Assembly: GCA_046563655.1 (NCBI GenBank)
Contig: CM102283.1
Coordinates: forward strand, 6,758,001-6,822,000
Direction of reading: 5' to 3'
DNA from: Yuukianura sp. NJ FZ-2021
Taxonomy: Eukaryota
DNA length: 64,000 nucleotides
Below, piece by piece: positions 30,991 through 63,874 of the stretch. Position numbers and translations under genes: made by a program. Below the pieces are notes generated by a model. That model made no database searches and was not told the origin of the DNA. It was given only the letters and a program-made list of their open reading frames with translations. How positions within the stretch are numbered: position 1 is the first letter of the stretch; each line of letters opens with the position of its first letter.

Positions 30991-31755
30991 TTATGCTTGG
31001 ACTGGCGGTTCATATCGAGGTGGCTTCTTCGGATCATTTTCAAAGTACATGAAATCGATGAGAAGCACTGCTCCCAGTAGTGTTGCTTTCATTCTTGGAT
31101 CCATTTCAAGTGGAAAACAAATCCCGTAGTTGTCAGCATCCGACGACACTCGAGAGTGACCTTGATACCGATCAAATTCCAAACCATCAAATTCCTTAGA
31201 GATTCTGCCGCAGTGTTCGCCGGCTCCATCCAACCCCTTGATCTTAAATTCCACATTGCCCATGAGCTTACAAGTACAACAGAAGGCCCATTTGGGGCCC
31301 TTGATCTCCAGCTTATCCTTCAAGGCTCCATCACGCACGACATACGTTGGACTAAAGATGGCACACCTTTCAGCAACTTGACCCAGAAGTGTTTCGGTTT
31401 CATCGGCCAATGTGACGTTGATTTTGGAGTCGTCGAAGAGGCCACAGAAGCACATGCGACATCCGCAACAGGAAGTGCATGAACAGGGTCGTTCGATTCT
31501 CATGATCGTCTTGCCTGTAAAGTCAATGACTTTGAACTTAAATGGACGACTGGTGCAACAGCAACAAATGAGGCAGTAGTTGGTCGTTTCGACGGCAAAG
31601 AAGATTCGTTCTCCCTTGGAATTGATGATTTCGTACTTATTTTTAGTTTCAAAACCGGATAGGATTTCGGTCACTTCCACCAGTTGCTTAATGAACAAAT
31701 GAGTAGTGGATTCCAGCACTTCAAGTCCGGCTGGAGTCGGAAGAGGTTCGGCCAT
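30991..31755 (-). CDS. Phospholipid scramblase (PLSCR family); possible upstream coding exon 32081-31852
   Basis: P.GLE.L, GFETKNKYEI, RPF, Cys-rich palmitoylation cluster, GRISKEF, DADNYGICFP, KATLLGAVLLIDFMYFE. ORF 31848-32081 can splice in phase 2 to an acceptor at 31768. Confidence 0.92.
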   Translation of the reverse strand: MAEPLPTPAGLEVLESTTHLFIKQLVEVTEILSGFETKNKYEIINSKGERIFFAVETTNYCLICCCCTSRPFKFKVIDFTGKTIMRIERPCSCTSCCGCRMCFCGLFDDSKINVTLADETETLLGQVAERCAIFSPTYVVRDGALKDKLEIKGPKWAFCCTCKLMGNVEFKIKGLDGAGEHCGRISKEFDGLEFDRYQGHSRVSSDADNYGICFPLEMDPRMKATLLGAVLLIDFMYFENDPKKPPRYEPPVQA

Positions 31756-33450
31756 TTTTAAAAATAAACTGAATTTTAAAACCGAATTCCGAAAACTGAA
31801 CTTGAAAGTTAGAAATCGAAATATTTCTTGGGCGTTACTACAAATGTTTACTCATTTTTTGAAAAGATGCTAATCGTGACTGGAGAAAATTTTGGAAAAG
31901 GAGAGAAGCTGTGAAATAAGAGACTCTTATATGTGACTGAAATTCCTTTATCGATCTTGGGCGGGATGGACTTTTTCTTGGTATGTTTTGAGTAAACGCG
32001 TTTCCTGGACAAGATCCTGGAGACTCCAGTCGGACTATTCCGATCCCCCATGTGGTAAAATTCCATAGGGTGCAGATCCATTTAAAAAAAATTGAATACC
32101 CGCAGTTTCGGTGTATCCAAGATCCCTACGGTTTGTCTGCCTTATGCTGGAGAAAGTTAAAAAAATGAAAATGAAGTGAAAGGGGAAATTCCATTTTATT
32201 TGTGCTGGGCAGTCGTAAAGAAAATGCATTTCATGCATGTCAGAATTCTTTTCATTTTCTCGGCTTTCGTTGGCTTTCAATGATATTTTGATGCTCATCT
32301 TCCCAAATTACAGTTTCACACGAAACTGGAATACCGTAGATTTCCAAATAGTGCACTACTTCTACAGACTTCTAAAGTAGTAGTTGTTGTTAGGACGCTG
32401 TAAATGTTGGAAACAATTTGTGCACTGGGTTCACTATTTGGAAATTTACGGTAGTACGGTAAACGCAGGATATCCCTTTCACTTCGGTAAGTAACGCATT
32501 CAATTTCAGAAATTGGACGCTAGGTCCATCAAATATTCTGGTGAAAGTAAATGCCAACTTCAAATTCAAACACAAAAAAATTCAATTGTTCACAGGAAAT
32601 GTTCATAAAAAATTAATCAAATACCAAATTTGTCTTTTATGAATCTCGAAAATAAGATTGATGACACCTTAATTCAGTTTTTATTGAAATCCAAACTCAA
32701 AGTTAATCCTCAGTTATCAACTACACACTGTGACTTGAGTGTTGCTACCTGTAAAGCTTTTGTGTAAGTCGTTGCTTTTCTAAGGTAAACCGATTTTTCA
32801 TTCCGATTTTTTAAAACATAAGTTCGATTATTTTTTCCAAGTGTAAGTCCATTTCCCTCAAAAGTAAGTCAATTTTAAACAAATCGATCTTTACAGCGAT
32901 TACACGTCCATTTCGAATCGAATTTTAACGAATTTTTGCCTAGTTTGAAAATGGCTATTAGACTAGCATAGATTTTGATTGTTGCCAAAGTGGATTAGTT
33001 TTAAGTTAGAAAAGCAGTTGAAAAATCTTAACCAGTGGTTGCAATACTACAATTGGTAATGATTTGGCGCGTAAAGCCAAAAAGTGTGGGACCATTTTAA
33101 AACTAAGTTCTAAATTAAATGTATAGTGAATGTAAACTCGCAGTTAAGTTCAATTTGTGCCAGTAGCTCTTTAAAAAGTTAAGTTCCGAGGCATGGCAGG
33201 TGAAGTCACTGTGATTAGTCTTGTGTGTTTCCAGTTTTTTCCAAAAAAAAATTCATTTCGCAAAAATCCAACAATTTTTGAAATCCACACTAATCCGGAA
33301 GCTTTCACAAGACGGAGATGCTTATATGCGGTTGGTGGCACTTTTCAAAAGCAGCAGGAGCCAAAAAATTGGCGGAAGTTTTTGAAATTTTGTAAACAGG
33401 GCGTTCATGCGCAAATGGAAATGTTTTCCAAAACGTTGGTTTTTGCATCC

Positions 33451-43899: not shown

Positions 43900-46662
43900 A
43901 TGGGAGACGCTTGTCGCTGCGAGCCGTGTGACTGCGATCCGCCAACAGAGGCTGTCGGGGATGCCTGCGTCTGCGAGAATCCGCCTTGCGAATGTGGCCG
44001 ACCAAACGACGAGTGTGTTTGCAAACCATGTGACTGCGATGTTCCCGCGGATACTTGCGTTTGTGATCCGTGCGTCTGTGAGACTCCGCCTGGAAGTCCC
44101 AAGAACCCACCAGCAACGCCACAGGGAGACTACTGCGAACCAATCGGACGCGGATTTACTTTGAATGAATTCATTCGTGCTAAGGAATATTTCTTGACCA
44201 CCAGCACCAACTCTGGACTCAACATGTAAGAAAAACATTTTTAAAAAATTCAAAAATTTCCAAAATTCGGAATTCTTACTTCTCAGGTATGATCACTTGT
44301 CTGAAGTTCTGCGAAAGTTGTTGGATGCCCGAGCTCCACCGAATTCGGTAGACTTTCTGGAGGAAACCAGTTTGAACATCAAGCGTTACCGATTTGGGCT
44401 TCCAAACGACCTTGTTCGTGACAGCTACTACTTGTCGTCTCCACTTGCCGAAGATGCCATGACCGTCCTAAATACTTGGCGGGTAACATCAGAAATCTCT
44501 TGAGAACGCAATTTGACCTTTGACTTTGACCTTTGACCTTGATTTTTTATAGCAACATGCCAAGTGGTCCAAGTTCACAGCAGATCAAGGTGAAGAGGGC
44601 AGCGGGTATGGTGGATTTCCAAATCTGTTGCGACTGCTGTACTACTTGGAGCACATCAACGTCGGAATTCCGAGGGAAGAAATGTTTCGAATTGCTTTGG
44701 TTCATCGTGGACTCAACTTGACACATCCTATCAAACGCTCGAGGTAAATTTCAAAAATCTTTTTTAAAAAATTCTTTTAAAAATTCTAACATTGTTTTTT
44801 GAATAATTCACAAGATTCTGGGGAAAAATCTATGCATCTGAGAAAAACTACTACGTGATTGAAGCCGAGCTGAGTGGACCAAACGAAGATGATTTGTGGA
44901 AACTTGAAGAAGAAGAAAACGCCGTACCTGGAGACACAAGTGCGAATTTGCCCAACTACAATTTCATCAGTGGTCAAGAAACTTATGAACGTGCACGCTC
45001 CGCCGTTACAGATCCAAATGTGTTGATTCCCTACCAGGAAACGTAAATTTACCAATTTTTTAACCTAACTTTTCATTTTTAAAAAACTTTTGAATATTTT
45101 TTTGAAAAGGTCCGGCCTCCCGCCAGGACCAATCAATTGCGTCATGCCAGCATCAACAGCAGTGATTCCCGGTGAATTCGGTGGCGAAGGGTACGGAGAT
45201 GGCCCGCCGCTCGACCCTGCTGCTGCAGCGGAAGCTGCTTTGTGGGCTTCATATCAAATGGAAATGATGGGTGGGTTTCCCGTGCCACCGAAGATTGCTC
45301 CAGAAGTCGTCATTCCTTCGGAAGCAGACGGTCAAGGGGTCAACCGCAGAGCTTATTATGTCACAAACGAATTGAACGAAAAGTGGGTCCTTCTGCCTTC
45401 CGTTACTCCAAAACATGTCCAAGTATCGCGAAAAATTCGACGATTTCTTACTGGAAAACTCGACGCAAAGGTTAGGTCAAAAGAAATCCTTAACTGGCAC
45501 ACTTTTGAGAGGTCAAAGGTCAAAGGTCAAATTTTGGATTTTTCATATAGTTGACCACTTACCCAGAATTTGACGGGCGGGAAGCTCACTACTTGAAGGC
45601 TCTTCTGGCTCGAATCACTGCTGGATCTCAAGTGTCTCCGAAAGGCTACTTTCGTCGAACTCAGCAAATTGGCGACGAGGAGGAAGGCGAAGATGAGGAG
45701 GAGGAGGGGGAGGATGCAGACGATTATGGCGGCGGTAAACATTTGCAAATTCAAAAAAATCAACTTTTTGATTCAAAATGTTTTGATTTTTGAAATTGTA
45801 GCTGCAGACATTCTTTACGGAACGAAAAAGTTCCATCCGCCTCCAATGTCTGAACTTATGACACAGCCTCCAGCATTTTGGGTTCACCATGTGAGTAACA
45901 TTTTGAAGCAAGGTCGTGTGACATGGTGGAATCCGAAGTTGGCCCTCATGGACAAACAAGCAGACGAAGATGAGGAACTGGGCGAAGAAGAAGAAGATGA
46001 AGAGGACGCTCCTGGACGTGAATTTGGTCCGACGCTGTTCAGCTCCATTGGAAACGACGAAACGCTGGAAGGATTTTTCCCGTGGAGCCCTCGAGCTTCT
46101 TCGACGGTTTTCACGGAGTTCCAAATCGCTTATGTCCGCTCCAATCTTTGGCCAGGAGCGTCTTCTTTTTGCACTTACAAGTAGAAAAAAATTGCTTAAC
46201 CAAAAAAATTAAGTACCTAAGCTAGATTTTAACTTGCTGAATTTCTTAGGGGAAAGGTGGAAAATGTTTACTTTGGCGATGGAATGAAGTTTCGTGGGAC
46301 GTGTTTTGCCCCACCAGTTCCGGTGGGATCTGAGTCGGAGTACAAAGAAGGACCGGAGTTGACAGAGGTCGTTGACCCCACATTTGAACAGGAGCAAGAG
46401 TGGCTCACAAAGATGGAGGTAAATTTAAATTGACACAATTACATGGAAGTACAAGCTATCATATTATGATAGTTTCATAAGCCTTGCTAGATGAGACAAA
46501 TTTTGCATTACTTAATTTTCAGAATTTTTGTTCAAAATTTTTAAAACTTCGAAATTGTTTTAGTTGGATGGACTGAACGATGTTGAAGAGAAATTCGTGG
46601 ACAACGAAGTGACTGACGATGAAGACGAAGGCGGTACAACTGAGGAAGACGAAGATGATTAA
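43900..46662 (+). CDS. RSPH4A/6A: Radial spoke head protein 4/6-like with a Cys-rich N-terminal extension (multi-exon)
   Basis: [113 protein letters not shown]...[22 protein letters not shown], acidic tail. Confidence 0.9.
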
Positions 46663-46994: not shown

Positions 46995-47806
46995 ATGAGT
47001 AAAATTACATTTGTAACAGGGAATCCCGGGAAGTTGAGGGAAGTAATCGAAATCTTGGGTAAACATTTCCCGCGAGAGGTAATAAATGATTCGATTCAAT
47101 TGATTCCCAATTGTCAATGTCACCACTGACTGTGTCAATTAATCCCGTTCAAATTGTTTTTTTAAGCTTGTTTCGAAGGACGTGGATGTACCGGAGTTTC
47201 AAGGCGACGCAGACACTATTAGTCGGTACGGTAACGCTGGACAGCCAGCATCGATCATAATGCTGATCACTGGAATGATGAATGGGAAAGGAACTGAATG
47301 TGTTTGTTGCTTTGATAGATTGAAATGCAAGTCAGCTTTCGACATCGTTCAGGGTCCAGTAGTTGTAGAAGATAGTTGCTTATGTTTCACAGCACTGAAT
47401 GACCTTCCAGGGCCTTACATCAAATGGTTTCTCAAGGGAGTTGGTCCAGAAGGACTTCACAAGATGCTGAAAGGATTTGAAGACAAGTCAGGCACTGCGC
47501 AGGCCACTTTTGCTTATATGGATGGCACGAGTCCTGAGGTCAAATTATTCAAGGTGATTAGAGATAAACACCTAGGTTTAGTTAAATTGATTAATTGCAT
47601 AATGTAATTGCCATAAACTTTAGGGTATTACGAAAGGCACCATTGTGGAACCAAGAGGACAATCTGGATTTGGATGGGATTCATGTTTCCAGCCAGAAGG
47701 ATACACCGTGACATATGCAGAAATGACTCCAGAAGAAAAGAATAACATTTCACATAGGAAAAAAGCTGTAGAGGCAATGAGGAATTATTTTATTTCTATT
47801 TCCTAA
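46995..47806 (+). CDS. ITPA: Inosine triphosphate pyrophosphatase; exons ~46995-47078, 47167-47224, 47319-47553, 47623-47806
   Basis: [54 protein letters not shown]...KN.ISHR. Confidence 0.95.
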
Positions 47807-47963: not shown

Positions 47964-49558
47964 TCATGGTTCCTCAAATGGCAAGAATTCGGAGGCTCTT
48001 TTGCCGGAGTAAATGCAGTCGTTGACACTAATCCCTTCAAAGGAAGCACCGGATAGCATAAGAGGGAGCTTCGAAGCTTTGATCAGTCGCTTGGCAGCAT
48101 CAACTTTTTCTGAATGGCCCACGGTGTACTGAGGTATACATTGGCGAGAGTGTTTGATATGAATAACATCGGGTTCTCGAGTAATTCCGAGTGTTGTTTT
48201 CAAGTATTCTTTCATGAGTCGTTCTGTTGATCCCTTGGAAGGAGACGTCCCTGACGCACTATTGTGTCTGCGAATTATCGTTAGCACAGTACTCTCACCT
48301 TGGTCAAAAACGCAACTGTCGAATACGACTCCAAGAAGACCGTCAACCTCTGGAGTATTCTCTACTTCATTAGATGGTACTAAAAAGCCGAATCCGTCTT
48401 CCTTCAAAACGTTTGGATCATTGTAGACAACATTTGCAATCACCACATCTACTCCCTCTATAGTGTCAATTAGCTGCGTAAGTGGCGAATGTGACGGTTT
48501 GGAGTTCCGTAGAATACTGGCCAAATTCCAGGATGGTATTGCGGAAACTATGAAATCGCAGTCTTGGGATTTACTTGGTTGGGTAGCATGCTGTTCAGTA
48601 TAGTGTAGAGTTGCCGGTGGTGCAGAACAGTCTGACCCATCTCCAAATTGAATCGAGTTTACTTCAGCATTGCGCAATATGTCAATCTTCATTTCGTTTT
48701 CAACTACATCTTGCAGTCGTTCCACCAACGTTTCAGTTCCGTTTTCAAGTCCCCACAGTGACCAACCTTCTTGAAGACAAGTGAGACTGATTGTTGATAA
48801 TCCAATGGCCTTGTATCCGGGAATCTGCACAAATTCGTCGACGGTGGTAGGTACATTCCGAAACCGAGCAATCAAGTGTCCCAGAATTACTGATCCATAT
48901 TTTTGCTCATACTCGAACTGTCTGGCGAGGGTTAGCTTCACTGAAATTTTCTGAGCATCACCAGCACAGACTCCGCGAATCAAAGGATCGATGGCGTACA
49001 TAGCAACGTGCTTACCAAAACGACGTTGTACAAAGTTAAAAACGGTGTCGTCGTTCCCTTTCTGTTAAAAAATAAGAGCAGGACAATTAAAACTCTCGCT
49101 ATCTTTCTATTTGAAATGACAAACTTACGTACATATCTTGGTGTAAAGAGATCCTTGATCACAGCAGAGATAAGTGGTTTTTCAAACGGTGGAACTTGCT
49201 TGTACACCATTGACAGTTCCGTGGGAAGACGAACGAGCTGACCTTTGCTAAAAATAAATCGATTCCTTGACGCTGGATTTGACTTTGTGACGTAAAGAAC
49301 TTTTTTGTCTAATCCAATTTCCTCCACAAGGTCCAATGTGTTGAATCCGCTGAGTCCAGCTGGTCGAAATGATCTAGGACCAGTGTCATAGTAAACTCCA
49401 TCGTTCTGCCTCACTGTTTCAATCCATCCGCCGCATCGATGTGACTTTTCAAAAATGATTGGCCTAACGGTATCGCCAAACTTCTTGCGTATGTAATATG
49501 CTGTGGAGAGACCGGTTATGCCTCCACCTAGGATTGCAGCGACCTTTGGTTTTGCCAT
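47964..49558 (-). CDS. PPOX: Protoporphyrinogen oxidase (2 coding exons)
   Basis: GGGITGLSTAY FAD-binding motif, GGWI, GPRS.R, NRFI, IDPLIRGVCAGD, GFGFLVPS, LGVVFDS, CIPQYTVGH, GISVNDCIYSG. Confidence 0.93.
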
Positions 49559-50065
49559 CTGGACGGTTTGCTTTAACTGCGACAAGTTAAAAGTTAACTG
49601 AAAAATTAAAAACAGATATGAGTGTCCTTTCATGTAAGCGAATTAGCGAATTTCTCCAGTTCCAAAGATTTATATTACCTTTTTTTGTTGAGCAGTCCTG
49701 ACTTTACTATAAGGTCGAGTGATTAGCCAGTGATGATTAATCCTACATCATCTTAATCCAAATCGTAAAAACAATCGCTAAAAATTCGATTCGAATTGAA
49801 TTCAATTCACGAATCACGACAAAAAAAAAAGTAAGCGAGGTTTCGCGCCCTATTTTTTAAATACGAAAAAATTCATTAAGAAAATGGAGAGAAAAACAGA
49901 CGCTAGAAAAACCATTTCTTATACAAACGAAATTGCATTTCAAAATTAAAGTTAAGTTAATCATTTAAGTGTTATACAAATATAATTAAAATTAATCAGA
50001 AGACAGTAAATTATAATAACTTAAGTTAATTCCCGCCTCAATCAAAACGAATTGCCATAGGCTTC

Positions 50066-50118
50066 TTGAACCAATTGGTTTTGAACCTTTTCATTTGAAC
50101 CAATTGTATTTGAACCAA
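50066..50118. repeat. ~15-bp period TTGAACC array (4 units)
   Basis: ttgaacc at 50066, 50081, 50095 and 50110. Confidence 0.55.
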
Positions 50119-51023
50119 CATGCCTGCTTCCTCACGTTTTTGGTATTTCAACTATTTCACACTTTCGCACAGGAAATAACCTAAAGCGTTTTGATTCTCT
50201 TCCGCTTTGTGTCATTTCACATTATGTGATCACCGCTAACTTAAAATTCCAATTTTTAATTTTTGGAAACAAACTGCTTTTTTACAAATTGACATCAAAG
50301 TCACACTCAAAATCATAAAACTTGAACTCCAAGGTTAAATTTTTCTCATTCAGCAGACGAAAATAGTATAATTTAGATTAAAAAAAAAAGATCATAAAAT
50401 GCTAACTTCGTAGAATATATCAATCCTAGACCGACCTTTGTTTTGTTCATTCTAAATTGTGCGAATTAAAACAAACATTTTAATTAAACTTGGCCCTGTT
50501 CTGTATTGTTTGTTTTACTAAATGCCTCTCAATTGTTTTCCTTCCCAGAATCTTTTAGTCGCAGAGTCAAGTGTCAAAGATTAGAAATCGCAGCGTACAT
50601 AACTTTTAAGTTGAGACATAATTTCTGCACCATCATCAATTTGTCTCAGATTCCGTTAAGTACTAACAATAATTCGGAGACACAGGAGCTGAATCAGCAC
50701 TGAAATATTTGTTTAATGCTATCACCATCAAATCCACCCCCTTAACTCTGTCCCATTGATTTCCTTGTGTCCTTACAACCAAAGTCAAAATCAAATTGAA
50801 CTTTACTAACTTACATTTCCAGTGTCTAATCTTATCACGGTCTAAACCAACACAAAACACCTACTTTTCGCACAGTTCAACAATAAAGTGCAATCTTTTT
50901 CGCGAAACAGCACAGGATTCACGAATAGTCTGGATTTAGTAGTTGAAGGACGCTGCTGTTCCTTTTTGCATTTTACACAATAAAGCTTCTACCGATCGAT
51001 GTCAAAAATTTAGCACTTTTGAC

Positions 51024-53619
51024 ATGTCGTTTAGGATAAGACTTAAATTTGTGCTAATTTGGACACTTATGTACCTTGTTTTAAACATTTCACATGCAGC
51101 GGAAGCATGGGATCCTGATGGACTCATCTACAGATCTGCCGGATTTGACACAGGTTTGCAAATTCACTTTAAAAAAAAACTTCAGCATTTTGACGTTTTC
51201 TACTAAAAGTGTAAAAATCTTGTAAAAACTCAAAAATTAACTTGTGATTTACTGCTGGAGTAGGAAATTGCACTACGCTTGAAAGCTGGAGCGGGGCGTG
51301 GTCTCGGGGTGACATGAGCGATGAAGCTGCGCATGTGCTGATCAACAAAACAGGAATGTCATTTGAACACAACTTGGTTTACACATGCGTCAAGTCCCTG
51401 GAAGACAATTACGTTATTCGGGAAGAGTAAGTGTGAACATAATTTGAAAAAAAGTCTAAATTTTTTTTTGCATGGTTTTTGGTTTTTTTTAATCTTGCTT
51501 TTGAAATCTAGAGATGGAATCAGCCCGCCTTGCTATCGCTGCTTGATCATCTTGAGAAGGCATTACAACGTCCTCCAGTACCGAGAAAGTAAAAATTTCA
51601 AATCTACAAATTAATTCAAAATTAAGATTTAAAAAAAATGCTCAGACTTCGCAAACTTTTTTTTTTGAACAGGTGAGTGTGACGACCAAGCGACATTTGA
51701 CGACTGCATGACAATGTCTCCCAGTTCACCAATCCTATCCCTCTTTCGCGTTGATTTTAAGACTGAGCCATGTCCCTTCGCGTCAGTAAAATCAAATTCA
51801 ATGTTAACTCAAGAAGTAATTTGCAGTTCAATTACTAATTGAAATACTTCACCTTTGCTTCCAACGTTTCAGTGAGCGACGCATGACATTTGATTATTCG
51901 GTGGACGGCAGAACATGTCCATACGAAGCTCCCGCGGGGTCAAACGTCGAAGCTTGTTCAGCCGCTGGAACAGTTTTGATGAACTACGAAGCTTGTGTGG
52001 ATGTCCAAGGCTCTGAAAAAATGAGTAAAACAGTATAAGACATTTCAAGTTGAAAAATTTCAAAATTTCAGAAATTCAGCTAGAATTTTGTTTTGAAAAG
52101 GGGAGGAGCTTACCTGTGTCGGTAGTTGGCAAGAAAATTCCCATAACTATTTCATCGGAAAAGTAATTCGGAGAAATGTCGGAGGCCACAAAGAAGAGGG
52201 TTTCAAGTGCTTCAATTTCCAGGAAATTCGGAGGCATAAAAGTTCCCAAGACGTCATTGGATATCAAGTGGCTCGGTCAGGCGATACTGGCTCATGCGCA
52301 CATGCTGTTTCACCTACCGATGGATCTTGGACTTACAAACTACTAGGTACAACTTATACCAACCTTGATTGAATTTGAATTCAGAATGACCTTTGACCTC
52401 TATTCCATATTTTTCTGTTCCCAGTGCAAGAGGAGAAGTTTGTGTCGTTCCCATCCTGGTTAGGTCCAGATCCAGATGAGCATGGAGAGAGTCGCTGGAA
52501 TGCGTTGAATCTAACGTTTCAATTTGTGGTGAATGCTGTTGGCGGGAAAATCCAAGTAGTTCCTACTCCAATCGATGCTGCTAGTCAAGCCATGAATACT
52601 GCCAGTATCCGGTCATATCAATTTACAGCCTCAAGAATTGACAACTTCACGTCAACTTATGCTGCTATTGACGTCATCGAAATTGTTGGATGGTAAGCTC
52701 AAAAGCATGAAAATGCTGTTCACAATTAGAAATTGGTAAAAAGTTTTGATGTTTCACAATTTGTAGTAAACGGTTGCCAATCTGCATGGACTTGTACCGA
52801 AGAGATGAAAATGTGATAGAAATCGAACTGTATCATCGTACACCAGAAAGCGATAGGACAACGTCCTGTCATCATCTTGTCAAAGTCAATCCCCATATCA
52901 CCTACACTCTTGTCAAAGACAGACCGAATCCAGTATCCTGTCCACTCACTGGTGTTTTTAAGCTCGATGTTCCTCCGGTCAGTTCACATGAACAGCACAT
53001 CGAAAAATGTGACAACAGTACCAGTACTACTGCCGCCATTCTGGAAAATACCGAGTTGGACCACTTTTTAGAAATTGGTTGCGGCGGGGAACATTTGAGT
53101 GATCTTGACTTTTACACTTCATGTAGCAATGGTAAACCGATTCTTCCTGGAGAAGCACTTCAACTGGTTTCTGGTAAAAAATCAAATTAATCAAGTTAAA
53201 TACTAAATTAGTCAATTAATTGAATTCAACTAGTAATTGAATCAAAGTGCTTACCGATACTTCCAGGTCTGGACTGTATTTCTTCCTGGAAGGAAGATCA
53301 GAAGACGTTCATCGTAGCGAACAATAGTCGTTTCGGTGTTCCAGGATACCGATGTCTCGAATTCTTGCCAAATCCAGAACATTCCACATACTCCGTGTTT
53401 GTCTCAATGGATGACTGCAAACCATCGTCGGACCAACGTCTAATCAACTGGACTTTCAGTGCTGCGCAGTATTCTGAATGTGGATACACAAATACCAAAG
53501 CAAATATGCAAATGTCAGCAGCACCACCACTAATACTGGACGGATTTTGGTTCATACTTGCTCTTCCCTTACTGGTCGGCGCAACATTACCTAAACTATT
53601 CTTGTCAGTTGTTACCTAA
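51024..53619 (+). CDS. Secreted, probably GPI-anchored Cys-rich protein of an uncharacterised arthropod family (DUF7042/7043/7044-like), ~9 exons
   Basis: Signal peptide, CYRCLIILRRHYNVLQYRE, SLFR...CPF, CMDLYRRDENVIEIEL, CPLTG.F, C..SW, YRC, and a C-terminal hydrophobic tail with no cytosolic segment. The family assignment is from memory. Confidence 0.7.
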
Positions 53620-54325
53620 ACTAGTATACAAAATCATTAATGTAGTGTAAAATACTTTAGAAATAAGCATTAAGTACATAAGCATAAGTACTGCGTCTTT
53701 TGTTTACTTGAAAATAATAAAAGTTTACTTATTTTTTGTAAGTCACTTGAAGAGAAGAAATTGTACTTGAGCAATTGGAGCAATGTCACTCAACTAACAC
53801 ATTAAATTGCTCCGAACTTTTGAATATTGAAATGAACAGACAGTGACAGTATATCTAGAAGAACCTGTAAAAAGTTGCAGTAAATGCCAATTTAAGTAGT
53901 GTAGGCTTTTAAAAATTAAGTTAAAGTTTAGCATAAAGAAATCCAAGATTATCAGGGTTACCGGATCGGCTTTCTTTTAGTGAGATCGGAGTCGATTGGT
54001 AAATTTAACCAAGTTTTTGCATTAGTATAAGCAGAGTGTAATAAGTTTCCGTTATAAAAAACGTCTGTTCGATTCAATATTCACGTAGTACATTATAAAT
54101 TGATACTTAACAAATTGTTTCAAAAATAGCAGAATTACATCTAAAAGACGCACATGCGTGCATTGTTATTCTTTAGTGATTGGCACATAAATCTAAAGAC
54201 AGGCAAATCTATTTCACTTTTCAGATCCAATTTTTAGTAAATTCGACTTTGTCGCATAAGGTGCCAAAGCCTCTCTGAATTATTACTTGATTTTTAGAAA
54301 TATTTGAACTTGTTCCAATACCTTC

Positions 54326-56938
54326 CTACACAACTCCAACTTGTGCAAGCTCCTCTTGAACACGCGTAAGGTACGTCGGATCAGGGTACCCGTAGGACTG
54401 GACACCTCCAGCGATAGACGTTTTATGATGAATGTTCCAAACGAGAACGTTTTGAGCCCCAGTGGTAGCACTCGTTCCAAAGACAAAGATGAGACGACGA
54501 TCAAAAGCAACTTTGAGCAGTTCAAGGACCTTCAAGCCTTCTGGAGAACCAGGAATGTACGCCGTTCGGTTAATTCCTCCAGTTCCACGAACGTAGTACT
54601 GGATGCTGTAAGTTGAGTAGTTCCCGTGTCCTGGAGTGGCGATTCCCTTCATTTCAGTTACAGTCATGGATCCATCGGGACATGTACCAATTTCCACACC
54701 AGTGACAGCTTTACAGAATGGACACTTTAGGAACGTATGCTTGGTGCCGGACATGGTGGTACCAGAAGTCTGCATGTAATCGTGGCACGGGACGCACAAC
54801 TTATGCTCACATTTGAGCTTCTATAAAATAAAACAATCCAAAAATCCAATTAAATATCACATTAATATCTTCATTAATCGTTAATTTGAATAAGATCAAC
54901 AAATATAACAAATCTTACCCGCCAATATTGAGTAGCCGAGGGGTAATCCACGCAACAAATTGTGCATTCCTCTTCAGCTCCATTCGGATCAGCATCAGGT
55001 ATGGAAGGCAAAGTCGCTGCAGGTTCAGCCTTCCGCTTCCCCTTCGACCGCGTTCCTTTGCTGCTTGACGATTTTGTACTGCCATCTGAATCTGACCCTG
55101 AACTGGGCTTGTCCAGTTTGATTTTCTTGAGAACTGAAGTAGAGGAACTGCTGGAAGTAGTAGCAATGCTTAGTGTTTGAGTAGCCGCACTCGATTCGAG
55201 TCCAAGAATAAGAGCATCAATTGTTTTTTCGACGTCGTAGTCAAATGATTTCAGCATCTCCAGGTTCTTTGCATCATCCGTAAATCCCAGCTCTGTAAGC
55301 ATGCTCAGCTTTACAGCCAATGATTCTTCTTCGTCTTCTTTCTGTTGTTGGGCTGAGTTGGCCCCAGAATCAGCTGTTTTGTCCTTATCGTTGACAGCGC
55401 CCATCTTGTTGTCCTTGACTTCTTCGTCTCCCTCCATTTGAGAAAAGATTGTTTGAGCAAAGAAAGGCCAAGCGACAGTTCCCGTAGGCGGTGGCATGGC
55501 AACACTAGTGCTTTGTTGTGTCCATGCAAAAGGCGGACTTTTGCTTCTCCAAGGTGCATTGGCATCCCCTCCTGCAGTTTTTGTTGGTCCCATGGAATAT
55601 GCGATGGTGTAGAGAGGGCAGCAATGGTAACGATTGTAAATCACATATTCATTGGCATGACTCGGACGTCCAGTAATAGAATCAAAAAATATATCCATGT
55701 GATTCCGTTGTTGATCCTTCTGTTTAGTCGGTTCTCGTACCATTGTATTTTTACTTGCCAAGTTGTCGACGTTAAGGCAATCTCCAAGAAGAACCATGAA
55801 GAGAAACAGTGTTCTATGCTGGTCATACTGGGCAGATTTGAGGGGATCATCTGCAAAGTAAATTCCACGTCCAAGTAGGCCACCAACAGCATTTCCGAGC
55901 CGCTCGTCAAGCCCCTGAGACAAAATAGCTTCCATATCCCCTCGAGTTCCATGGAATAGTAGGGCAACATTGTCAGAATAATCTGTGGCGAGAGACGGAT
56001 TCTTGTCAAAATTGGTATTCACGTGTACGCGATGAAGCAATTCGTCTTCTGGTAGGCCCAAATCTCCAAGCAGTGTCAAATCTTCAACTTTGCGGCTCAT
56101 TAGATCTTTCCTAGTTTGTGCAAACTTCCTCCAGAGTTCCGGATTCACGATGCGATTAATGGCAGTCACTTTTAAGTGTGGCTCGACTAGGTTTGCCAAA
56201 GCTCCATACTCAAATGACGTCTTGGGCACAGGAATAGTGTGATATGGAGCGATGACATGGATTGCCTGGTTATAAGATGCTTCCCAGTTAGGTGGCACGG
56301 CTGGTCGCGCCTTGACCTCATACTGGGCCAGAAGAGTCTGCGGTGCTGGAGCGGGTATTGGAAGCTGAGAATCGGCAAGACCAGGAACAAATGTGCTACT
56401 GGCTACTAACTTCTTCCTTCCTTTTTGCGTCTTCTTGATGGTTGCTGGCTGTGTTAGTGTAGGAAGTGCTGATGGAATAGCTGCTGGTGGCGCAGTGACA
56501 ACGTGACCATTAGTTGCAGCCGCTGAGTTTAGAAACTGCGCGTTTAGAAACTGCGCGTTTAGAAGACCTTGAAATGGATTTGGTGCAGTGTTTGCTGCAT
56601 AAGTGTATGGGTTGTTGCCATAGCTCGCGATAGTAATCCCAGGATAACTTGGTGCTGATGGATTAGCAGGCACTGGAGCATAGGCTAGCGAGCTGGAGGT
56701 TCCATTCGAGCCCTGTTTTTGTAACGTTAAACAAAACACAACGTCGTTAGTTTCCGTCCTGCTCTACCTTATTATGCTCTATTCGGAATCAGAACTTATG
56801 TGATCTCCACAACATTGGACTTACGCTTCCATTAGTACTAGCAGCTGCTGGTGGCAGCGGCAAAGACATTGTATTCTTAATTGCACGTTCTATAGAATCT
56901 TCGTAACGCTTAGATTTATCGTTTGCTGACTTTGACAT
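54326..56938 (-). CDS. PARP-type ADP-ribosyltransferase + UBA + RING + Deltex C-terminal (DTC) fusion protein, ~800 aa; exons 56938-56825, 56712-54919, 54820-54326
   Basis: ART motifs LLFHGT / GRGIYFA / NEYVIYN. UBA-like LSMLTELGFTDDAKNLEML...DVEKTIDAL. C3HC4 RING split by a phase-0 intron. DTC motifs RTAYIP...AFDRRLIF..GTS.TTG...WNIHHKTS...YGYPDP.YL.RVQEEL. Confidence 0.88.
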
Positions 56939-58461
56939 TACGCAAAGGGAGAAACCTATCAATTGTATAAACAAAATTGCTATAAAAAACTCATAATTAA
57001 CCAAAAAAGTGATATTTTTAGGGTCTTTCCTTACCACTTGATTCTCCAGAACCGCTTCTTCGTTTAATTCGAGTACTTCAATTTAGGTTGAAGAAATCAT
57101 TCATCCAAGAATAAAAAAATTCAAGTTTCTCCCACAACAAAAGGCAGACGTCAACTCACATGCAGCATACAAAGTAATCGATCACTATACGTAAAGAATT
57201 CAATCAATATTTAGATTACTTGACTTTTTAAGAATACAAGTAAGGGTAAAAAGTGTCACGACGAAAATAATTACCTTCAGGACCGGCATCAATGACCACA
57301 GACAGACATCACAATAATTCTTTCTCGACTATCAGTTCCGCCAGTATAAATCGCCCTGGTCGCGATAATTCACTTAATTAATCGCTGAATACCCCTCGTA
57401 CAATGTAGCAGGCCGGTTAGTTGTTGTCTGTCCGCGTTAGTGTCCGATCGTCCTTTGTCCTTGTCCAGTCCGGGGTCCTTATTAACTTCTGGTTCTCAAT
57501 TTATCTCAATCTCCTCAAGGAACAACAACAAATCCTAAAACTTTTGTGTCCATCTAAAAGTCCCATGGCAAGTCAGTTCGTCACCTGATTACTAGTCCAG
57601 ACAGCAGAATTGAGCATCTTACCTCTTATCCCAATGACATATTACCTAGTAATTAAATCAAGCAAGTAAGCATTATTAATATTTAACTTAAGCAATAGCA
57701 TCAACGTAAAACTACGATATTATATAATTATTTAAGATATTAATCAAATTTAGCACTTCATGTTTCACCTGCCAGAGAGTTGTACGGGTGACACTGTATG
57801 GGATTTGGTGAGCTTCTGGAGAGACCAGTCTACAATAACGAACGATTTGTGAAACAAATTCTATTACGAATTTCCCGCTTTTCTTAGCTTAGCGTCCTTC
57901 TGCTTAACGTTACTACTTTTAGAATAATAAGTTTATTTTAATAAATATAGTTATAATTAAAATAATTAAATAAATACACTAATTTCAAATTTTAAGTCCT
58001 AATTTAAATAACGACGAACGCCTCATATTTAGTGATTTTTTAAAAATTGTTCTGACTTGTCTGGATTAGTTTGATTAAGTTAGTGAAAGCTACTTTATAA
58101 TCTGATTCATGCCTGTCTCCGTGTGCGTGTGTCCAGGTTGGAATGTTATTGATTTTACCGTAGGAATGAATCCATTCCTTCGAATTTGTTTAATTTGATT
58201 TATTACGTCTTGGATATATAAATGAAGTAATTAGGAAGTTACAAACTAAAATAAATTAATCATGGTACAAACGCTTAATTTTTAGAGATGAAGACAACAA
58301 AAGGACAGGGAATGACAAATGAGATCGGAATAACCTCTGAAACTGGACTCCTTGGATGACACGAAGTTTGGTGTGGTGACCTTTGACCTTTTGAAGAACT
58401 AAGGAGGTCATCATGCTAGTTATTGTACTTTTGTTAGTTTGTTGACACTTGAAAGTATAGT

Positions 58462-61400
58462 TCATCGGACACGACCTGAGGGAGACCTTAAGTGTGACCG
58501 AATGTGACCTGTCCTTGTGTCTACCGGTTCTTGGTCTTGGCTCCTTCCACGCCTATTTCTACCCCAACGAGAGTGGTGTTTCAGTTGGGCCAAATACCTG
58601 AAATGAGTAAAAGTTATTAAACATTATTTAATTACTTAATTAACTTTCACTAGAATAAGTTAATAATTTTAGACTAAAGAAGCATAGCATGGCTAGTTGA
58701 AAACGTTCCACATTCAAAAAAAGTTAAATGAAAATAGAACAAGACAAGTTAGACAAGACAAGGAGAAATTTTCTAAAATGTCAAAAGCTTAGATCGTCAG
58801 CGACAGGTTAGGAAGTCATGCACATGCGCTTGTTAAGTAGCGTCGAAATTTTGAATTTTTGAAATTGGGAGGAATGTGCTGGTGATGGGATTAGTTAATT
58901 GAGTTTTTAATTAATTAATTAGTTATAGAAACTTTGGTACCTGCAATTTTATAAAGCTTTTCTTCTTCTTTAATTTTTTTGGACAAATTTTTCAGTTTAT
59001 TCTCAACTGTGAGCTACACTTTGCAAAAATGAAAACAAAAATCAACTGTGGCTGTGACCTTAAAAGTATTTCTAGAAAATGAAAAACTTGAAAAATTCTA
59101 AATTTTTGAAAATGTGTGTTAGTGGCTAAGGTGCTGCAAAATTGACTCGTTAAAATAATTTCCAAATTCTAATTTTTTTTTGCTTACTGAAGGAAGGAAG
59201 AGAAGGTGAACAGTGTTGATCGTACGGGTTACGCAAATTTCCTTTGTTTCGGAGGGAGAATTTGAAAAAATTAAAATTTGAACAGGAATTTTCAAAAACA
59301 CAAAAAGTTGAAAACGATTTAGGACAGACAAAAAGGACAAAAATTGTGCAAAGAGGATTAAGAAAATAGTTGAATTTAGAAAAGACAAAATTCTTGCCAA
59401 TTTTTGAAGATTTTTGATTTTTTAGAAAAGTTTAAAAAATCCAATGCCAGAAATTCTTGGGGTCAATCAAGTATCATATAAGAAGGGTTTAAAAAAGTTA
59501 AAAGTCAAACTTGTTAAAATGTTAAAAAGTTAAACGTAGTAAGTAATTAGAAGATAAAAGTTAATATTTGAAAATCCAAAAAGAAAACTATTATGCCGTT
59601 TTTTCTGTTAGATTACCGTTCGTTTTTTTGTTTCCTATTTTCTTCGACTCTTGTTCTGCTCACAACGGAAATTGACCTGCGTTCTAAAAAAAAATGTTCA
59701 GAACAAAAATAAGTCTCATAATTTTGATTTTTTTTTCATTCAAGAATACAATGGATCGTTGGTTCCACATGGTGATGCATGACGAAAAAAGAACAACATC
59801 AAAGTGAAAGTGCAGTTTTCACAGAACAGACAAAATCAATAACTTTTTTTTACTGTTTGTTTAACTGGGCGTTGCCTTTCTCTGTGTGTCAATTCGACAG
59901 CCAAAATCAATCAAATGGCGCCGATGTGACGCATTTTTCAAAGAAAAAAATTTTTTTGAAACAAATTGTAATTAAATTATAACCCAAACTTTAAAAAAAA
60001 ATGATGAAAGGTACTTGATTTCACCTTTAACTTTTCAGTCACCGTTACGCATGCGTATAGCTCTCAATCATTTCAATCCAGGTACAGTTTAGTATCACTC
60101 AAGAACTCAACATTGAAGCAATTTAAGAAAGACGCATTTTTTCAAAAAATTTCGCCAAAATTTTTTCCCGCAATTTCGTTCAATAAATTTCTCCAAATTT
60201 TTCTTTGTTCAAAATATCGGCGGTAAAAGCCTTTTAGCCCCATTTAAAATTGAAGGCTTTTCGTGGCATTAAGGCTCAAACTTTTTAAGGCTAAATACAC
60301 CACCCGAGCCCATAGAATTTGAAAATTGTCTTTTAACAGTTTTTAGGTCTTTTTGAAATTTGAAATTTGTTTGAAAATTAACTTTTTTTTTTGTTTGATT
60401 TGAATTTTGAATGTTAAGTGCGCCTATTTTCAAAAGTGGTGATTGGAAAAGTGATGGAGGGGATTGAAGGAGGCGAGAGAAGGGCGGTGGTGGGAATGAT
60501 ACTGCTGGAGTGGATATGAAGAGGCGGAGTTTGGGTGGGAATGATGGTGGGACTGATGGTGGTTGTGGTGGGGCTGATGAACAAGGTGATGGTCAAGACC
60601 AGCACGACTAAGACGGGGGAGGGCAGAAGAGTAGCGAGTGGGGACTTCCTCTTCCGGTGGCGGTCCTTGAAAGCGCCTTCAACAGACACAAGGAACAAAC
60701 AAAACATAAAATTTTGACATCAAAAGTAATATTTTCCAATTTTACGAAAAACACGAAACAAGAAATTGAAACTCAAAGTAGCATCCAATGACGCAAAATA
60801 AGTCAACATACTCTGATACTATTCTAAAAAATGTCAAAGGTCAAAGGTCGTCACAACTCATGCGCAGTGGCCCAGCCAAAACGCAGAGTTTTCTTTTTCA
60901 AAAATTTCTCAAAAAATTGAAACTAAAGAATAATACTCAAGACGTTACAAATATACTAAACATTTACATGGAAGCAAAGTTTTCTTTTGGTAGTTTAAAA
61001 TTTAGCGCCAAATGATATCTCAGTTTTTGTATAAAATTTTTAACTTTTTTGAAAAAACAAACCTGATACAACGGGTGATGTAGTCGGGCCAATTTTCTGG
61101 CAGCAGAACAACACAGAATCCAATGGAAATCGTCAGGATTCCTGCGAGCCTCATGTCCAAAAAGGTGAAGCCGTACAAGTAAATATCCAAAGCTGAAATT
61201 TTGAAAAAAAATGAAATTTCGAAAAATTGTGCAAAAAGAAAATGAGAAGCATCAAATTTGACAACAATTGATAGGTGATTGATGTACCTGCGGATACTGG
61301 AATGGCAAAAAGTAGTCCGACGGTAATGAAAAACTCGAATGTACAAGTAACCCCAAAGTTGTCCAGCATGGATACCACTGAAAATCAATTCCGTACATGT

Positions 61401-63874
61401 CAATGTCAGGATTAATTGAAGTTAGACTATGCATGTATAACCTAATCTTCACCTAATTGTACAAGGTTAGTTCAGTATTAACTTACGGAGAAAGCAACCC
61501 ACAGCCATTCCAACCAGGTCCCATGGCACGACTGGCCAAATGATGACCTCGACCCCAGTAAAGTACAAGGTCACGAAGATGGGCCACAGGATGACCACAG
61601 ACAGAAGTCCAATCACTGAGAAAATGAGAGCCACTTGCTGCGAAATAGTGGCGCCAAATCCAAACGACTTTTTCAAACTAACCTGAAAGCGTCAAATTTC
61701 AAAAGTTACGCAAAAAAAAAGTCCGCTAAAATTTCAGAAAAGTCAAGTTCAAAATTTCCCGCTTACTTTGAATACTGCTGCACATCCAGCCGATGCTGCC
61801 GCCAGAATAACGTAGCCCATCGTTTCGGACTTGTGTGTCTGACCGTCCATGTAGGCCAGTAGAGCAATTCCCATGTTGCTCAGGATGACGGCCATGATCT
61901 AGAAATTTAAAATTTCGAAAATTTCACAAATTCAAAAAATATTTTTTTTTTCAGAAATCTTACCCTGACTCCGACAAATTGCTGATGGAGGATGACCCAT
62001 GACAGAACATAGGAGAAAGACGTAGTGGTTGCGAAAAGTGCAAGTACTTCGGTCGCTCGAAGTTTACGAAGGGCTGCTAGTAACAAATAGTTTGTAGCCA
62101 ACCATAGGCAGCACAGGGCAGCACATCGTCCCAGAAATTGAACTGAAACCAAAAATTTTTGAAATTTTCAAAAAATTTCAAAAAACATTTTCTGCCAAAC
62201 TTTTTTTGACACTTACAGAGTGTCATTCCGCGTTCCCGGAATCCTTGAACAGCATCTGAGATGGCTCTGGACATAGTTTTCGGTCCTTTTCGGCCCATAC
62301 AGGAACAGAACCTGACGGTCAACTGATGTACGGGGTAGAAGAACATTGTAGATGCAGTGAGGAGCCATGCTGTAAAAAAGGGGGCGTTATACACTAGTCG
62401 GGTGTGGTCAACTGCTGGAGCGGGGGGCATTGTGGTCAGTTCAGTGGTCCTTTGGATACGCAGGTTATAGAGGGAGTTCCCCTCGGGGGACAAGTAGTGC
62501 GTGTAGGGAGATATTGTGACCCCATCTAGGTCAGTCGTCGTAGGTTCAACTCCTGTCATGGGGTCAAAGTTCAAGGCGTGGTGATTGGCTGCGAACAGTT
62601 CAGTTGTCATGTAAGCTCTCTTGATGGCATGGATAATCGTTGTCCAACAGAAACCAACCACCAGGGACAGAAACGCTCCGCAACATAACTAGGAATATTC
62701 AACAAGTTAAACAAATTAGGCTCTTATCGATTTGTAATTTGGCATAATTGACCAATTTGCAAAAAAAAAAATGGAAAGGAAAGAAAAAACGGAAGAAAAA
62801 AGTTCGCAGCTTTGAAAAAATCAACCCAGCCGTTTCAAGTGTTTACTATTTTTGTGGAAATTTCGCTAATGGCGAGCTCGACTAAAAATTGGGAAAACAA
62901 GTCATCAAAGTTTCAAAATCTTAATTTGCGGCCGTCAAATTGCAAAAAGTAAAATTTTGCAAGAAGACCCACAAAAAAAGTTCAAATAAAGGCATGAAAA
63001 TCATGCAAACTAAAAAATTAACAACAAAATCCCAAAAACTCAAATTTTATCATATGGATTTCTTAAAACAAATTTTCTCACACGGAAATTTAAAAAAAAA
63101 TGAAATTGTGTTACAAATTTTTCAGGACAAATATTTTGTGAATTTTTTAACTAAAATCATGTAAAAAGTGTTACACATCACAAACAAAGTTGAAACAGTC
63201 GAATGAAAAATTCAAAACCGAGAAATTGTGTCACAAAAATCCAGAAATAGCAAAAACTAGCACTGCCAAATATTTTTTCGCACTTTTTTGTTTACCTTTC
63301 TAGCCGTTTTACTGAAAATAGCTCTCCGAATAATTCCGAACGTTTTGGCAATAGGTTTCAAATTGGTATTGTTATTGTTATTATTATTATGATGTCCACT
63401 GTCTCTGCCATCCCTGTGAGGGGGATGACTATGCAGTCCTCTGTCGAACGACGACTGATGAATCAGTGAACTCTCCAGTGTCACAATGGCATTTGTGTTA
63501 CTTTGGGCTTGGACGTCCGCTAACAGTGGAACGCTGGATGCTGACGTGCCAGACCCAGCCGAACTGAGTCCAGTCCGTCGTCCACTAGTACTTTCCCCAC
63601 CACTCATTGGTCCATTAGTCCCACCACCACCAACTGATCTGTCAAATGTAACTGCCCGATGGACGGGATAGTTGTAGTCGTCACCGTCATCGTCCGTTAC
63701 AACTACAGACGGATTCCGTGTCCGTCCATGACTGCCTTCACCAAATAGTTGACTAACAGCAGCCGAATTTCTTCTGAGTTTTCTCGGATTGAAAATTGCT
63801 GAAATCCCTCCAGACACTTCAGAGAGCCGACGAGATCGGCCACCCACTGACGGTTGCTGCCCGTCGTTACTCAT
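58462..63874 (-). CDS. SLC35F3/4: SLC35F3/F4-like (putative thiamine) transporter, multi-exon; last exon 58597-58462
   Basis: YNAPFF..W, LWLATNYL...AL.KL.AT.V.ALFAT..SF.Y.LSW..LH.QF.GVR, ALLAYMDG, LLPENWPDYITR, and C-terminal RTGHIRSHLRSPSGRVR*. Confidence 0.88.
60430..60676 (-). CDS. Candidate alternative His-rich terminal exon of the SLC35F gene
   Basis: The AG acceptor is in phase 2 with the donor at 61062. The exon has 81 open codons ending in TGA and encodes 18 His. Confidence 0.5.

Follow-up and report, generated by a model that had tools for sequence, protein, structure and literature searches.

A predicted single-chain protein of Yuukianura sp. joining a PARP catalytic domain, a UBA-like segment and a Deltex-type RING-DTC module

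We analyzed a 64,000-nucleotide stretch of contig CM102283.1 from Yuukianura sp. NJ FZ-2021 (assembly GCA_046563655.1, positions 6,758,001 to 6,822,000 of the forward strand), hereafter called the window, and examined a predicted three-exon gene on its minus strand. As predicted from the sequence, the gene encodes one chain of approximately 800 amino acids, whose disordered and partly basic N-terminal region precedes an ADP-ribosyltransferase (ART) domain. This domain has an H-Y-E triad and is extended at its C-terminal side by a family-specific part; a UBA-like domain comes next, and after a linker the chain closes with a C3HC4 RING and a Deltex C-terminal (DTC) domain. On balance, the protein is probably a self-contained writer of ADP-ribose that is coupled to ADP-ribose-directed ubiquitylation, a reading which draws on the conserved domain anatomy and on the analogy with known Deltex enzymes. 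The same architecture was also found in other organisms, and the window protein appears to be a member of a rare conserved family whose uncharacterised members are listed in public databases with automatically assigned names.

Results

Catalytic modules of the predicted protein

All coordinates given here are positions in the window, the gene lies on the minus strand, and the residue numbers of the domains are partly counted within exon 2. The Pfam PARP profile (PF00644) matched exon 2 with an E-value of 7.9e-16 and 58.6 bits, above the curated cut-off of 26.7 bits (exon 2 residues 226-373, 55594-56037), and the codons of the triad were confirmed at the positions where the original prediction had placed an intact H-Y-E. 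In the numbering of the 800-residue product, His292 (55951-55953), Tyr323 (55858-55860) and Glu393 (55648-55650) are aligned to the corresponding residues of tankyrase-2 in the motifs LFHGS, GIYFAE and AEYVIY, respectively. In a 34-row family alignment, with counts taken over the rows covering each position, the His and the Tyr were present in all rows (30/30 and 32/32) and the Glu in 31 of 34, while Gln replaced the Glu in the three exceptions (P0036, P0043 and P0314). In addition, a set of 48 sequences showed 28 more ART columns with full or at least 90% conservation, at every one of which the window protein has the conserved residue.

The fold of this region was examined with an AlphaFold2 model of exon 2, which was built with a 48-row alignment and had a mean predicted local distance difference test score (pLDDT) of 73 and a predicted template modeling score of 0.60. 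The model was confident at residues ~125-430 and ~455-512, and disordered before residue 106 and at residues 513-567. The first confident block (residues ~125-430, 55423-56340), with pLDDT mostly 82-98, comprises the folded ART and a family-specific C-terminal extension. When the ordered core was searched with Foldseek, the top matches were PARP12 (2pqf; E 1.4e-13, template modeling (TM) score 0.77-0.82) and the tankyrases (TNKS2, TM up to 0.80), with TM scores on the target of 0.7-0.82 for the PARP12 and tankyrase catalytic domains. As modeled, the core of exon 2 has the ART fold. Past this core, the motifs PPFAW and WPFFAxxIFxxM (55435-55536, pLDDT 84-92) are kept in arthropod, chytrid and environmental members, and they appear to form an ordered family-specific extension with no counterpart that we could name.

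The RING can be read straight from the spliced product as C-x2-C-x15-C-x-H-x2-C-x2-C-x20-C-x2-C, and this complete C3HC4 pattern lies directly N-terminal to the DTC domain, as had been predicted. Its first part (54919-54966), at the end of exon 2, holds the first C-x2-C pair with nearly invariant Cys columns and the next loop. Throughout the RING, the Cys and His columns were invariant or nearly so in 44 sequences. The cut-off of the Pfam family zf-C3HC4 (21 bits) was passed by the RINGs of two orthologues, P0026 (23.5 bits) and P0298 (22.6 bits).

The DTC domain (54332-54688) was matched by PF18102 with an E-value of 2.2e-37 and 128.6 bits, against a cut-off of 25 bits; the match spans profile positions 2-133 of 133 and stops one residue short of the C terminus. 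In a search of exon 3 against the PDB, the best matches were the RING-DTC of DTX2 (6y22, 2.4e-30), DTX3L (3pg6, 1e-27) and DTX1 (1.8e-24). The original prediction had called this domain DTX3/DTX3L-like, for which we obtained no specific support, since the best solved match is DTX2 ahead of DTX3L.

The DTX2 residues which bind ADP-ribose or activate its 3' hydroxyl are named in the available text of PMC7442474 and PMC7615817. We mapped the DTX2 numbering through the PDB alignment and checked it against Arg535, Ser567/568, Trp578 and His594 as given in the available text of PMC7442474. The equivalents of DTX2 R535, S567, W578, H582 and E608 are identical in the window protein, which by this alignment retains the DTX2 pocket for ADP-ribose together with its catalytic His/Glu pair. 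His767 (54428-54430), the first His of HHKT, is equivalent to the catalytic and ADP-ribose-binding His582 and was found in 24 of 26 family rows; Glu793 (54350-54352), the equivalent of Glu608, was found in 25 of 26. Both columns were at least 90% conserved in 44 sequences. The two rows without the DTC His are the chytrid paralogues P0036 and P0043, in which the PARP Glu is replaced by Gln and the DTC His by Glu; in P0043, the DTC Glu is also replaced by Gln. This apparent joint loss of both active sites fits coupled activities, as far as it can be read from the sequences, and since the tree places P0036 and P0043 as sisters, it counts as a single event.

Evidence for a single gene

Two minus-strand open frames lie head to tail in this region, one of 629 codons (54874-56763) and the other of 164 codons (54326-54820). 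After the strand was read and translated by script, they were joined in a spliced three-exon model which spans 56938-54326 and gives a product of 800 amino acids, with both introns being of the GT...AG type and in phase 0. Exon 2 (54919-56712; 598 codons, donor GTAAGA) encodes the disordered N-terminal region, the ART, the UBA-like segment and the linker, together with the RING's first Cys pair. Intron 2 (54821-54918; 98 nt, acceptor ...TTATAG) interrupts the RING, and exon 3 (54326-54820) encodes the remaining RING (54713-54820) and the DTC domain, ending with the stop codon TAG at 54328-54326.

The original prediction held that all modules are carried by one chain, and several lines of evidence support this. 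First, the ligands of the RING are divided between exons 2 and 3, and a single gene is indicated because the two half RINGs are sensible only if they are joined. Second, when related metagenome loci were found by a scan with an 8-row alignment, a PARP exon followed by a RING/DTC exon on the same strand was observed in 10 of the 13 best loci. Two of the other three end within ~120 nt of the PARP match, and the third (L013) holds only a PARP fragment. Third, a GT...AG phase-0 intron is located at the same point of the RING in all seven loci inspected (L001-L007), after W-[K/Q], with G for W in L006. Several contig-derived database 'proteins' (P0001, P0003 and P0289) end in this intron or read through it. 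Fourth, tblastn of seven RING-DTC-bearing proteins matched both exons, the match in exon 3 starting at 54820 or 54817, and the exon 2/3 junction aligns without gaps to Folsomia and Bradysia proteins. RefSeq and GenBank entries of Folsomia candida, Bradysia coprophila, B. odoriphaga and Pseudolycoriella hygida, and several from Chytridiales, likewise hold PARP and DTC within a single polypeptide. Finally, unbroken open reading frames from PARP to DTC are found on short Logan contigs (P0010 and P0018). From these sequence features, we consider the gene to be intact, spliced, nuclear and real.

The locus L013 (12-394) was also inspected separately. It has a PARP fragment of 98 residues and a short inverted partial copy, with no RING or DTC in the ~1.9 kb downstream, and it may be a decayed copy.

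The start of the gene is tentative. Since no Met precedes the ART domain in the frame of exon 2, there must be a coding exon further upstream, and the nearest candidate was taken as exon 1 (56825-56938; 38 codons) on the basis of its ATG (56938-56936), its open frame and its splice signals, with donor GTAAGT at 56824. The tentative intron 1 (56713-56824) is followed by exon 2 after the acceptor ...AAACAG. When ten homologues were compared with the window by tblastn, the matches covered 56532-54913 of the exon 2 region and nothing past 56532, so that exon 1 was uncovered and no conserved N-terminal domain was detected.

Two Lys/Arg clusters were observed in the product, KKTQKGRKK before the ART (~56410-56436) and TRSKGKRKA before the RING (~55027-55053), both on the minus strand. 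They resemble nuclear localisation signals and, in the window protein, hint at a possible nuclear localisation; similar clusters are present in some homologues and are not kept family-wide. An AT-hook-like RGRPKK is present in Bradysia P0005 and P0007.

Ubiquitin-binding position

Between the ART extension and the linker, a three-helix segment (55177-55350, exon 2 residues ~455-512) was modeled with helices of pLDDT 87-96. The Pfam family UBA_NBR1_C matched the window copy with an E-value of 2.8e-4 and 21.2 bits, under the cut-off of 27, which was exceeded at the same column by Folsomia (29.8 bits) and by Pseudolycoriella (61.9 bits). This family was matched in 10 of the 48 members scanned with Pfam. 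In a sequence search of the segment against the PDB, the best match was the UBA of NBR1, which was weak (E 0.011). The predicted UBA-like domain is thus supported by its three-helix model and by the orthologues above the cut-off, but in the window copy itself the score does not reach the Pfam threshold.

In several chytrid members, P0026 (~262-290), P0015, P0034, P0023 and P0032, a zinc ribbon of the pattern W-x-C-x2-C...C-x2-C-G was observed at the position of the UBA. When the ribbon segment of P0026 was compared with the PDB, it matched the ArnA zinc ribbon (4.6e-4), Nup153 (0.02), RanBP2 (0.08) and the Npl4 NZF (2.4), and no RanBP2 zinc finger was reported in the chytrid segment by Pfam at E <= 0.01. 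The ribbon may be an exchange of one ubiquitin-binding module for another; ubiquitin binding by the ribbon itself is unsupported.

Related proteins and phylogeny

The family was examined by several searches. HMMER against 1.84 billion representatives gave 589 proteins at E <= 0.001, with 44 at E <= 1e-30. Both PF00644 and PF18102 were present in 5 of 16 matches from a word search and in 13 of 74 matches from a DTC search. Using phmmer with regions of the window protein, the ART region and exon 3 were both found in 36 of 111 family-level proteins. Among the 48 members scanned with Pfam, many of which are fragments, PARP was matched in 46, DTC in 22 and UBA_NBR1_C in the 10 mentioned above. Homologues with PARP and RING-DTC thus occur in a springtail, in sciarids and in chytrids, and the architecture is not unique to the window protein, which had been put forward as unfamiliar.

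Organism names were known for 15 of the 20 representatives looked up and for some other matches. The named carriers are one springtail, Folsomia candida, three species of sciarid fly, members of the Chytridiales and, at much lower similarity, Mesostigma viride. The Folsomia member is LOC110863369 (P0006). For Bradysia coprophila, we found at least four paralogues (P0005, P0008, P0033 and P0314), including LOC119079443, LOC119066711 and LOC119079799 (P0005, P0008 and P0314, respectively), and the further sciarid members are P0300 of Bradysia odoriphaga and P0020 and P0298 of Pseudolycoriella hygida. The Chytridiales carriers are Obelidium, Rhizoclosmatium, Chytriomyces, Physocladia, Entophlyctis and Podochytrium, and their proteins P0026, P0028, P0034 and others were automatically named 'dtx3l'. 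A chytrid-group record labeled 'Siphonaria sp.' carries a flag of possible contamination. Since one springtail and three sciarid species are the only carriers among the named arthropods, the view that this is not a standard arthropod gene agrees well with our results.

The PARP-(UBA)-RING-DTC proteins in the databases have the same domain order, post-ART motifs, triad and DTC His/Glu as the window protein, and differ from it considerably in sequence: the named members were 35-46% identical to it over exon 2 and 45-54% over exon 3. The closest relatives are metagenome sequences, P0017 (69% by HMMER and 67% by tblastn) and P0289 (61% in the DTC). Another difference is the RanBP2-type zinc ribbon that several chytrid members have in place of the UBA.

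In a tree of the DTC domain, which was built from 85 rows by a quick method and is poorly resolved inside the family clade, the family was recovered as a separate starred clade (97, 49 rows) that excluded DTX3-like proteins, WWE-Deltex proteins and Mesostigma. A full-length tree of 26 rows was built by a careful method and rooted on Mesostigma. In this tree, the chytrid clade was supported at 95/97, the arthropods together with five environmental rows at 93/95 (not starred), and the window protein was sister to P0289 (91/90). Folsomia was placed among the sciarid paralogues, and the approximately unbiased (AU) test of sciarid monophyly gave p 0.0725. Because this test does not reject the monophyly of the sciarid proteins, we make no claim of a horizontal transfer between springtails and sciarids. 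The patchy distribution may reflect either an ancient origin followed by many losses or an old transfer.

Two side observations were made among the DTC proteins. One is a fusion of Macro (PF01661) and DTC in mollusc proteins, one nematode (Bursaphelenchus) and P0346 (the set P0337, P0339-P0341, P0346 and P0348); all except P0348 also have classic RING-finger Pfam families. From their domain composition, these proteins appear to be another joining of an ADP-ribose module to a Deltex ligase. The other is P0333, a DTC protein of 431 amino acids labeled as coming from an archaeal metagenome-assembled genome; it was placed among eukaryote-like sequences in the DTC tree, and for this reason it is probably a mis-binned eukaryotic contig.

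Genomic neighborhood

The neighboring genes are protoporphyrinogen oxidase (PPOX; 47964-49642, minus strand), Ham1/ITPase (47143-47607, plus strand), a radial-spoke head protein (45069-45554, plus strand) and a scramblase (30991-31851, minus strand), where coordinates and strands were assigned to the four genes in the listed order. The nearest named relatives of the PPOX exon are from Collembola (Orchesella 43-44%, Allacma 43%), compared with 32-35% for Daphnia and insects, and by this comparison the window probably comes from a springtail-like arthropod. No second PARP or DTC was found when the homologues were compared with the window by tblastn.

A recent foreign insertion or mobile element was also considered and is not indicated, because the gene flanks have no direct repeats, Rfam gave no matches in 50000-61500, and the GC content of the gene's exons and their GC content at third codon positions are similar to those of neighboring exons. 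One weak AT-rich inverted pair was found in the flanks, outside the gene. In this setting, we saw no sign of contamination, of a mobile element or of a cluster of immune genes.

Discussion

As judged from its domains, the window protein belongs both to the PARP superfamily and to the RING-DTC (Deltex) family, and the sequence prerequisites for a one-chain writer and ligase, namely the modules, the triad and the DTC pocket, all hold. Every enzymatic step of the scheme below, the ubiquitin binding and the biological role are inferred from this anatomy and from the published biochemistry of Deltex enzymes. With NAD+ as the donor, the ART domain would modify itself or targets close by with ADP-ribose, and the DTC pocket in the same chain would bind the ADP-ribose so placed. 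The adjacent RING would recruit an E2 charged with ubiquitin, and the ubiquitin could then be passed to the ADP-ribose at its 3' hydroxyl or to lysine residues of the target so marked. Ubiquitin or the ubiquitylated products may be held by the UBA-like domain.

Several points weigh against this scheme. First, the ART is only distantly related to the characterised PARPs, the matches in a PDB sequence search being PARP12 (1.9e-7) and tankyrase-2 (~1e-6), and therefore relatives do not reveal which substrate it uses or which product it makes. An H-Y-E triad alone proves neither activity nor whether the product is mono- or poly-ADP-ribose. Second, two DTX2 residues are changed in the DTC of the window protein, S568 to Ala and H594 to Tyr; S568 is a main-chain contact, and Tyr is also the residue of DTX3L at the H594 position. 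Third, the UBA of the window copy falls under the Pfam cut-off. Fourth, the splicing and expression of the gene are predicted, with exon 1 being tentative. Lastly, nothing in the window ties the gene to immunity or stress. The proposal that the protein acts as an immune or stress effector found no support, its neighbors being housekeeping genes, and of the original prediction the one-chain anatomy stands, while the immune role is unsupported.

Among the other explanations, the one that survives best is that the ART is a non-catalytic or regulatory module which binds NAD+ or ADP-ribose, as proposed for PARP9, and that the protein is a Deltex E3 acting on ADP-ribose made by other PARPs. The distance of the ART from all characterised PARPs (E ~1e-7) would agree with this, and the ART fold can persist without the triad Glu, because three members have Gln there. 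However, H, Y and E are intact in the window protein and all three are kept in most of the family, with even the least conserved, the Glu, in 31 of 34 rows, and the 28 further ART columns that are invariant or at least 90% conserved are all matched by the window protein. We therefore regard a non-catalytic ART as unlikely.

Somewhat less probable still is that the main product is ubiquitin ADP-ribosylated at Gly76, with the ART and the UBA serving to position NAD+ or ubiquitin. According to the available text of PMC7500938, mammalian RING-DTC domains catalyze ADP-ribosylation of the ubiquitin C terminus, and the RING-DTC of the window protein is closely similar to those of DTX2 and DTX3L. Against this, the choice of Gly76 as the reaction is our own assumption, and a conserved and intact PARP triad would be left without a reason. 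The weakest explanation is a wrong gene model, in which adjacent PARP-UBA and RING-DTC genes were mis-joined or the locus is an unexpressed pseudogene; a predicted model whose exon 1 has no homology support and the PARP-only locus L013 speak for it, but we hold it to be very improbable given a RING that is whole only once spliced, frames open across 2.4 kb with canonical splice sites, a gap-free junction with Folsomia and Bradysia, an intron common to seven of seven related loci, and the uninterrupted frames of P0010 and P0018.

Returning to the writer coupled to its own ligase, a broader proposal can be made for the family, which we offer as speculation and consider doubtful. The members might be one-chain writers of ADP-ribose-ubiquitin ester marks that serve as a conflict or defence module, patchily kept or exchanged, possibly by horizontal transfer, among soil and litter organisms such as springtails, sciarid gnats and chytrids. 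In this proposal, the ubiquitin-binding module would be interchangeable, with a UBA in the arthropods and a RanBP2-type ribbon in several chytrids.

In mammals, the PARP writer and the DTX ligase are on separate proteins, and work on which DTX each PARP supplies is continuing. When an H-Y-E PARP and a RING-DTC are naturally fused, this offers a 'Rosetta stone' argument that both activities work on the same targets, particularly as the fusion is common to arthropods and chytrid fungi and both active sites are kept. A PARP-RING-DTC fusion was described nowhere in the papers that we searched, and supplementary tables, such as those of architectures in the fungal PARP preprint, may list such proteins. 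We believe that the family offers a compact and genetically simple system in which the whole reaction could be reconstituted in one polypeptide. In addition, its patchy occurrence poses a question of gene loss versus transfer that can be answered with better genome sampling.

Relation to known systems

One parallel is DTX3L with PARP9 or PARP14, where an ART-fold protein is likewise coupled to a RING-DTC ligase. The DTC of DTX3L is close to that of the window protein (PDB 3pg6, E 1e-27), and both have Tyr at the position of DTX2 His594. DTX3L and PARP9 are, according to the available text of PMC10955461, separate polypeptides joined through the D3 domain of DTX3L, whereas the window protein is a single chain, and when it and the 48 members were scanned with Pfam, no Macro, KH-like or D1-D3 region was found. 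PARP9 is described as apparently inactive in the available text of PMC4245714, while the ART of the window protein has H-Y-E.

DTX1, DTX2 and DTX4 are WWE-RING-DTC proteins which act on ADP-ribose made by PARP1 or tankyrase, whereas the window protein carries its candidate writer in the chain and has no WWE domain according to Pfam. DTX2 is the best solved match of exon 3, with the pocket and His582/Glu608 conserved and with Tyr for His594 and Ala for Ser568 in the window protein.

Tankyrase and RNF146 form a poly-ADP-ribose-dependent ubiquitylation pathway. The ART of the window protein is about as close to tankyrase-2 as to PARP12 (E 1e-6; TM 0.7-0.8), and the H-Y-E triad is common to both; neither ankyrin nor SAM domains were found by Pfam, and the model shows the first 106 residues of exon 2 as disordered. 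RNF146 is a RING-WWE reader and ligase, in contrast to the RING-DTC of the window protein with all parts in one chain. Orthology to DTX3L, PARP9 or tankyrase can be set aside, because the window protein falls in a separate clade and lacks macro, WWE, ankyrin and SAM domains.

PARPs fused to domains of the ubiquitin system have been reported in the available text of PMC4245714 and 10.64898/2026.07.25.740670, namely fungal PARP6-like proteins with UBCc (E2) and Dictyostelium clade 3 proteins with a U-box. In these proteins, the fused partner is an E2 domain or a U-box and not a RING-DTC, and the words Deltex and DTC do not occur in the available text of either paper. Compared with all these systems, the window protein would bring together in cis the activities which act in trans in the pairs of DTX3L with PARP9 or PARP14 and of DTX2 with PARP1 or tankyrase.

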